A DNA stretch of 64,000 nt, taken from the NCBI RefSeq assembly GCF_029227855.1, contig NZ_CP074356.1; one strand, written 5' to 3'. Under the pieces are notes generated by a model. That model ran no database searches, was not told the origin of the DNA, and was given only the letters and a program-made list of their open reading frames with translations. Shown in pieces: positions 8,310 through 8,948 of the stretch. Source of the DNA: Escherichia coli. GTDB lineage: Bacteria > Pseudomonadota > Gammaproteobacteria > Enterobacterales > Enterobacteriaceae. Positions within the stretch are counted from its first letter, which is position 1, and each line of letters opens with the position of its first letter. The position numbers and the translations under genes were made by a program.

Positions 8310-8747
8310 TTAAACCATCACCAGCGATAACTCTTTGCCAAGCGCCTTTGCCGCGAGCTGGACGGCGTCGATTTTTGTCGCATGGTGCAAATTAAATAGG
8401 CGAGTAATCTCCTGTTTAGGTTTGCCAATTCGTCTGGCTAACTCTTGCTGAGTGATTTCTGACTGTAAAAAAGCATTTAACAGCAATACTTTAGAGGCGA
8501 TACTTAAAGGCACTTCAATAAAGTGATCGTTGTTAGTTAATGGCGAAGGCAACGGGATTAGCTCATTATCTTCAAAATAAAAATCAAATGCGGTCAGTAA
8601 AGCATCTTTTGCCGCTTCCATCGCTTCAGCAACTGTTTCGCCCTGGGTCAACGCTTCAGGGATATCCACAAAAGAAACCATATAACCGCCTTCCGGCGCG
8701 GGTGTAAGAGTGACGGGATAACGCATAATTTCGACTGTCTCTCGCAT
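8310..8747 (-). CDS. hicB: Type II antitoxin HicB (alternative start at 8726 gives 138 aa)
   Basis: ORF MRETVEIMRYPVTLTPAPEGGYMVSFVDIPEA... with C-terminal HTH; immediately downstream of hicA. Confidence 0.8.
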   Translation of the reverse strand: MRETVEIMRYPVTLTPAPEGGYMVSFVDIPEALTQGETVAEAMEAAKDALLTAFDFYFEDNELIPLPSPLTNNDHFIEVPLSIASKVLLLNAFLQSEITQQELARRIGKPKQEITRLFNLHHATKIDAVQLAAKALGKELSLVMV

Positions 8748-8771
8748 GTCATTAACCTTTTTAATTGGCGA

Positions 8772-8948
8772 TTAACTCAAACCGAGTTGCTTCAGGATTG
8801 CTTTACGCAATGGTTCTTTTATCTCATCACTGGGGTGACGCGGCATGACACTGCGTCGCCCTTGAAACCTGAGTTTCAAATGGTTGCTGCCATTCGCTAC
8901 ATCGACGCCCTGAGATTCGAGCCAACGTCTGAACTCGCTTTGTTTCAC
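8772..8948 (-). CDS. hicA: Type II toxin HicA (58 aa, GTG start), mRNA interferase
   Basis: Hand translation of the minus strand gives VKQSEFRRWLESQGVDVANGSNHLKLRFQGRRSVMPRHPSDEIKEPLRKAILKQLGLS; below the ORF-track length cut-off. Confidence 0.8.
   Translation of the reverse strand: MKQSEFRRWLESQGVDVANGSNHLKLRFQGRRSVMPRHPSDEIKEPLRKAILKQLGLS

Follow-up and report, generated by a model that had tools for sequence, protein, structure and literature searches.

The hicAB operon on the chromosome of Escherichia coli is a well-studied type II toxin-antitoxin system, with genetic, biochemical and structural work behind it, and its K-12 version (hicA b4532, hicB b1438; PDB entries 6HPB and 6HPC) is one of the closest described systems to the copy treated here. 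K-12 HicA is reported to cleave mRNA independently of the ribosome and, when expressed, to arrest growth (Jorgensen et al., 2009). Its catalytic residue is given as His23, which in the 6HPB complex is covered by HicB, described as a fully folded antitoxin that binds DNA via its HTH domain. Published accounts of the K-12 operon ascribe to it two promoters: P1, possessing a CRP-S site and activated by CRP together with Sxy, produces a transcript yielding both proteins, while P2, which adjoins the start of hicA, is under repression by HicB alone and becomes derepressed by excess HicA, and the shortened transcript initiated there is said to yield HicB and not HicA. The operator hicO is placed by these accounts within P2, near the hicA start.

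Two further described systems share with this operon the location of the toxin gene ahead of the antitoxin gene. In HicA(T)B of IncI2 plasmids, which represents the internal terminator subfamily (PMC11878559), the intergenic region likewise sets the toxin:antitoxin ratio, the latter being raised by an intergenic G/C hairpin followed by a short U tract (PMC11878559). In Yersinia pestis HicA3-HicB3, as far as the description of that system goes, HicB represses the promoter upstream of hicA via inverted repeats, and two 15-bp operators, a single promoter and an intergenic region of 174 bp are specified.

Here, we describe the hicAB pair contained in a stretch of E. coli DNA of 64,000 nucleotides, referred to below as the window. 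It is almost certainly the known chromosomal operon in its intact form; the window copy is thus not a new system, being a slightly divergent intact allele. The data in favor of this assignment comprise the integrity of both genes, their family membership, near-identity of the products to crystallised proteins, a control region identical to that of K-12, and the presence of a palindrome combined with a -10 element, while RNase activity, neutralisation of the toxin, repression and the use of two promoters are presumed for the window copy by analogy with K-12 experiments. With K-12 HicAB it shares chromosomal site, gene order, GTG start, Shine-Dalgarno sequence, spacer and a 180-nt control region. 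Unlike IncI2-plasmid HicA(T)B, it has neither an intergenic hairpin nor a terminator-like site, and would, according to the K-12 work, rely on a second antitoxin-only promoter instead. Repression through inverted repeats, as in Yersinia pestis HicA3-HicB3, is expected for the window by K-12 homology; compared to that system, it has one palindrome, a spacer of 24 or 45 nt depending on the hicB start and, again by homology to K-12, two promoters.

Table 1. Coordinates of hicAB elements and of other toxin-antitoxin loci in the window
Feature	Position	Strand	Basis
hicA, 58-aa toxin (mRNA interferase)	8772..8948	minus	GTG 8948-8946, TAA 8774-8772; ORF list, Pfam, PDB, RefSeq
hicB, 138-aa antitoxin/repressor	8310..8726	minus	ATG 8726 (MRYPV...), TAA 8312-8310; RefSeq, Pfam, PDB
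Candidate upstream hicB start, 7 codons MRETVEI	8727..8747	minus	ORF list; would give 145 aa
hicA-hicB spacer, 24 nt, SD-like AAGG at 8756-8759	8748..8771	minus	Sequence, SD duplex energies, fold comparison; no G+C-rich hairpin
hicA Shine-Dalgarno GGGAGG	8953..8958	minus	Read from sequence, 4 nt before GTG
Candidate HicB operator (hicO), perfect palindrome GTAAACA-N4-TGTTTAC	8981..8998	no strand	Repeat search; 32 nt upstream of hicA start
Candidate promoter P2, extended -10 TGaTATACT	8967..8975	minus	Read from sequence; 5 nt downstream of palindrome
Region expected to hold P1 and CRP-S site	8999..9127	minus	K-12 identity; position uncertain
ortT	672..845	minus	Annotation of near-identical genome; intact translation from window
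hokB	25128..25277	plus	Annotation of near-identical genome; intact translation from window
sok antitoxin RNA	24982-25133	-	Rfam

Genomic setting and integrity of the pair

Both genes are adjacent on the minus strand, with the toxin gene upstream of the antitoxin gene in reversal of the usual order, and according to the list of open reading frames the segment 8310-8948 is exactly bounded by the stop of hicB and the start of hicA. The pair is flanked by ydcR on one side and by yncJ/rlhA on the other, as it is in K-12 MG1655. The 938-nt locus (8232-9169) shows 100% identity to E. coli JNEC-KY178 (NZ_AP045174.1), with which the whole 64-kb window is collinear, the number of mismatches being 7, and RefSeq annotation of that genome places hicA at 8772-8948 and hicB at 8310-8726 in window coordinates. 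The same locus is matched in 5,414 of 5,426 complete E. coli genomes; its identity to K-12 MG1655 amounts to 97.0% (28 differences).

The first-pass annotation, made from the sequence alone, had recognised an intact hicAB pair at this place, and this assignment is confirmed by Pfam, by near-identity to the crystallised K-12 proteins and by the hicA and hicB names given by RefSeq in the locus-identical genome. In the list of open reading frames hicA appears as entry 8772..8948 on the minus strand, 58 aa long with a GTG start (MKQSEFRRWLESQGVDVANGSNHLKLRFQGRRSVMPRHPSDEIKEPLRKAILKQLGLS). Its product scores 34.5 bits with the Pfam family HicA_toxin (PF07927; cut-off 27, E 2.2e-8, residues 5-57 of 58) and can be aligned without gaps over 58 of 58 residues to chain A of the K-12 structure 6HPB (E 8.8e-34), 56 of them being identical; H29Q and C40S account for the other two, and GSNHLKL still contains the catalytic His23. 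HicB carries two domains, a toxin-binding N-terminal one matching HicB_lk_antitox (PF15919; 32 bits, cut-off 27, E 1.5e-7, residues 10-72 of the 145-aa form) and a DNA-binding C-terminal one matching HTH_3 (PF01381; 31.4 bits, cut-off 23, E 1.9e-7, residues 95-141). It is identical to PDB 6U0I in 142 of 145 positions (full length, gap-free, E 1.1e-88) and to the HicB chain of 6HPB/6HPC (6HPB_B) in 134 positions over 138 of 138, the differences from K-12 being confined to the linker that joins the two domains (NSH>TNN) and to a single V>I replacement (I83). A frameshift or premature stop in either gene, which the first-pass annotation had proposed to look for by alignment, was found in neither of them, both proteins giving full-length gap-free alignments to their solved K-12 counterparts. 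The NCBIfam scan returned no match for either protein and is uninformative, since RefSeq names both genes, and with Rfam no RNA family was matched within the operon or close to it.

The size of 58 aa and the GTG start, also proposed at the outset, are borne out by the list of open reading frames, by RefSeq, which uses the same start, and by conservation in relatives. Six loci were aligned, i.e., the E. coli window, two other enterobacterial chromosomal loci (L009 and L010) and the Salmonella, Hafnia and Erwinia prophages (L006-L008); GTG is invariant in all of them, that is in the window and in all five relatives examined, and the GG.GG core of the Shine-Dalgarno sequence is conserved in 6/6. 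The weak toxin start is therefore a conserved trait of the clade rather than an oddity of the window, and it may serve to limit toxin synthesis. It was remarked earlier that hicA had been missed by the ORF track, for which the GTG codon is the less likely cause: a default floor of 60 aa is likelier, since it excludes a frame of 58 aa, and the gene appears mechanically once the list includes frames below this floor. The check confirms the GTG-started toxin gene of 58 aa as real and correctly placed.

Control region and comparison with prophage relatives

Outward from the hicA start, positions 8949-9127 are base-for-base identical to K-12, so that the published K-12 regulation should transfer to the window. 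The perfect palindrome located there (Table 1) probably represents hicO and lies where the K-12 accounts lead one to expect the operator; the motif GGTAA.CA..A..G.TTACT is invariant across the six homologous loci. The extended -10 element TGaTATACT is the probable P2. The transcript start predicted for it, near 8959-8961, falls on the 5′ border of the Shine-Dalgarno sequence of hicA and would fit a leader too short for hicA translation. In L009 and L010, both other chromosomal loci retaining hicA, the position aligned to this element reads TATAAT. A consensus promoter and terminator scan of 8200-9200 gave 4 promoter-like sites against 1.9 expected, none of them upstream of hicA, and no terminators; the P2 candidate went unreported because it has no -35 match. 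A promoter-like site at 8752-8725 was treated as a chance one, since transcription from it would begin inside hicB. For the segment expected to hold P1, weak candidate CRP-S half-sites TGCTA-N6-AGCAA can be pointed out at 9012-9027 solely by positional homology to the near-consensus TGCGA-N6-TAGCA in L009, and the search with the CRP-S consensus (TGCGA-N6-TCGCA, up to 3 mismatches) had no discriminating power, returning 291 matches versus 312 expected.

Read in the light of the K-12 experiments, the operon of the window would operate as follows. With its weak GTG codon preceded by a strong Shine-Dalgarno sequence, hicA would give a 58-aa RNase able to cut mRNAs without the ribosome; HicB would bind this toxin with its N-terminal domain, covering His23, and would occupy the operator before hicA with its C-terminal HTH domain. 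CRP and Sxy acting at CRP-S would direct P1 to the synthesis of mRNA for both proteins, whereas P2, kept repressed by HicB and released by an excess of HicA, would supply a short-leader transcript for HicB alone, by which the excess of antitoxin may be restored.

Closest to the chromosomal operon outside its own ydcR-linked lineage are the hicAB pairs of the Salmonella, Hafnia and Erwinia prophages (L006-L008). In Hafnia and Erwinia these pairs have the Q antiterminator on one side and the holin on the other, and in Salmonella their neighbours are terminase and portal genes. They resemble the window in a HicA of 58 aa or near it, starting with GTG and containing KQSEFRRWLE..., in a two-domain HicB of 60-77% identity, and in the GGTAA.CA...TTACT palindrome before hicA; their hicA-hicB gap measures 45-50 nt. 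They differ from it by a G+C-rich hairpin that immediately follows the stop codon of hicA (about -19 to -20 versus -9.6 kcal/mol in the window, for a 63-nt segment), by a second palindrome with TTGAC as -35 upstream, and by in-frame stops in place of the upstream hicB ATG. The hairpin, found at 1450-1500 of each prophage locus and belonging to the CCAGCCC-TTCG-GGGCTGG type, is absent from the chromosomal operons and resembles the internal terminator of IncI2-plasmid HicA(T)B. The prophage loci contain, approximately 60-95 nt before the GTG of hicA, two tandem palindromes, GTAAACA-AAAA-TGTTGAC and then GGTAA.CA...TTACT, overlapping the TTGAC -35 and the TACTAT/TATAAT -10; of these two, just the second is left in the chromosomal copy of E. 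coli.

The residence of these nearest relatives in prophages brings up another understanding of the role of the operon, namely that it is a phage-derived module (prophage moron, abortive infection or phage exclusion) and not a host regulator linked to stress or competence. Both window proteins do match PHROG moron families (phrog_353, 2e-11, and phrog_497, 2e-35), and an anti-phage role of HicA domains has reportedly been proposed in a published survey. Nevertheless, no phage genes flank hicAB in the window or in K-12, and the PADLOC defence models gave nothing significant, with zero matches for HicA and marginal ones of HTH type for HicB (E 7e-4 or worse), for which reason a defence-system label for the locus was dropped. 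Moreover, the chromosomal copy is devoid of the prophage-type intergenic hairpin and of one of the two palindromes, and it is situated downstream of the region where the K-12 work puts the CRP-S/Sxy promoter. We thus regard a phage-related function as improbable. Loss of the hairpin and of one palindrome together with the CRP-S/Sxy promoter region upstream suggests domestication.

Two candidate starts of hicB

The entry 8310..8747 of the ORF list (minus strand) offers for hicB an ATG-started frame of 145 aa with a second in-frame ATG at 8726, and the first-pass annotation had left the choice between the two to ribosome profiling or N-terminal data. The distance of about 45 bp that it gave between the genes holds for ATG 8726, separated from the hicA stop by 45 nt, and does not hold for ATG 8747, which is only 24 nt away. 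Most likely the main start is ATG 8726, giving 138 aa, and some use of ATG 8747 is also possible. Ribosome profiling of K-12 with tetracycline-arrested ribosomes shifted the hicB start by +21 nt, i.e., to the equivalent of 8726 (Nakahigashi et al., 2016; PMC4909307, Table S2), the signal at the +21 ATG in three cultures being 75, 19 and 14 and that at the upstream ATG 0, 0 and 115, respectively (PMC4909307, Table S2). Published profiling thus favors 8726, yet one culture was stronger at 8747. The GenBank record of 2006 used the upstream ATG (145 aa) and was independently changed to 138 aa in 2014, and both GenBank and RefSeq currently start hicB at 8726; among the structures, 6U0I was built on the upstream ATG, and the chains of 6HPB/6HPC have the 138-aa form. 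The full-text literature search combining hicB with ribosome profiling gave no match, and the TRAINSPOTTER N-terminomics supplements contain no mention of hicA or hicB.

It may be supposed otherwise that HicB is made mainly or partly from ATG 8747, with the MRETVEI extension, so that two proteoforms may exist, the longer one being an innovation of the ydcR-linked chromosomal lineage. Apart from the culture in which the upstream ATG prevailed (115 versus 14), this supposition draws on the AAGG located in the spacer, the last G of which is 8 nt away from ATG 8747, while the SD-like GAGAG before 8726 ends at a distance of 12 nt. Furthermore, the upstream ATG, a spaced Shine-Dalgarno sequence (AAGG, GAGG or GGAG, at about 8 nt) and an open frame of 7 codons have been preserved in E. 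coli, L009, L010 and the Citrobacter rodentium ortholog (L011) at approximately 70% protein identity, and a P2 transcript from which hicA is not translated would presumably need a ribosome-binding site of its own for hicB. On the other hand, in two of the three cultures the signal was found solely at the +21 ATG, which is also the start now used in GenBank and RefSeq; similarity to the family, like the Pfam domain, starts with the second Met; and the prophage relatives have in-frame stops in the 21 nt upstream of this Met, which marks it as the ancestral start. Between species there is hardly any constraint on residues 3-7 of the extension, which are variable in E. coli as well (E3G, T4A), and it is the 138-aa HicB that forms the HicAB complex in crystals. 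The strength of the Shine-Dalgarno duplexes was rejected as an arbiter, both being weak and alike (-3.4 kcal/mol for 8747 versus -3.0 kcal/mol for 8726). Production of HicB mainly or partly from ATG 8747 consequently appears to us rather unlikely, and translation from ATG 8726 is kept as the main route.

As to an additional use of the upstream ATG beside the main one, we give it a chance of about a quarter, and with the same reserve, slightly greater than that attached to the supposition just discussed, we put forward that ydcR-linked hicB may have gained a second upstream start (8747) with its own ribosome-binding site, leading to proteoforms of 145 and 138 aa. If this is true, their ratio could vary by condition or by transcript (P1 versus P2), and this would explain the upstream signal in one of three cultures. 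A separate observation concerns an ENA contig, in which a protein of 196 aa (P0001) is predicted with residues 1-51 of HicA fused in frame to the MRGTVEI-MRYPV... HicB; it looks like a small deletion that has joined both genes through the upstream hicB extension.

Allelic variation of hicA and other loci of the window

The differences of the window from K-12 are distributed unevenly, since 7 of 92 nt (7.6%) are replaced in the 3′ half of hicA (8772-8863) and 13 of 77 nt (16.9%) in the hicB linker (8490-8566), with zero differences in the 5′ half of hicA, in the spacer and in 8949-9127. Judged by this clustering, the allele looks like a mosaic or recombinant one. It belongs to a minority: out of 5,426 complete genomes of E. 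coli, 3,231 (about 60%) have an unbroken 3′ segment of hicA (8771-8870), and in 182 of these 3,231 the identity to the window over that segment is at least 99%.

Comparison of the window with the loci L003 and L004 defined two deletions that destroy hicA elsewhere in the species. The first, of 22 bp (window 8810-8831), is flanked by TGCG repeats in the K-12-type allele and frameshifts hicA, which RefSeq then annotates as a pseudogene; its junction occurs in 811 of 5,426 genomes. The second, of 445 bp (window 8549-8993), takes out half of the palindrome, P2, hicA and approximately the first 59 hicB codons, is annotated as a pseudogene in other strains, and has its junction in 1,093 of 5,426 genomes. 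An intact pair can thus not be taken for granted: one or the other deletion is present in at least 35% of the complete genomes of E. coli, and any claim on the toxin at the level of a strain therefore needs sequence. In the ydcR-linked ortholog of Citrobacter rodentium (L011, 1290-1500), most of hicA is lost, the 3′ remnant encoding ...QLRKAILKQLGLN, and hicB is retained together with its upstream ATG.

Given this repeated loss of hicA, by the 22-bp and 445-bp deletions within E. coli and for the most part in Citrobacter rodentium, one could ask if the pair of the window only looks intact, its toxin allele being already inactive and the locus decaying as in many other E. coli. The replacements H29Q and C40S and the 7 of 92 nt altered in the 3′ half of hicA could be taken in the same sense. 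However, five of these seven nucleotide differences are synonymous, the start codon, Shine-Dalgarno sequence and stop of hicA are unchanged, and His23 is kept along with every family-invariant position seen in relatives. Positions 29 and 40 are variable among relatives (H/Q/N and C/S/G, respectively), Q29 being found in L009 too and S40 in the Hafnia prophage copy, so that, as far as can be predicted from these alignments, the two replacements give no reason to doubt HicA activity. An inactive toxin is accordingly very improbable, and the pair is considered as an intact one.

The first-pass annotation had also counted three toxin loci in the window, hicAB, ortT and hokB, and this count holds, with ortT and hokB both translating intact from the window (Table 1). 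The segments 17688-18279 and 43232-43823 contain two IS200C copies (tnpA), each adjoined by an Rfam match to the STnc490 Hfq-binding RNA (18156-18279 and 43700-43823). In the annotation of the near-identical reference genome, ynbD (34995-36302) is a frameshifted pseudogene. One more ambiguity of start is encountered in rlhA (ydcP; 9492-11495), for which the mechanical frame begins at GTG 11495 (667 aa) and the RefSeq start is 11453 (653 aa).
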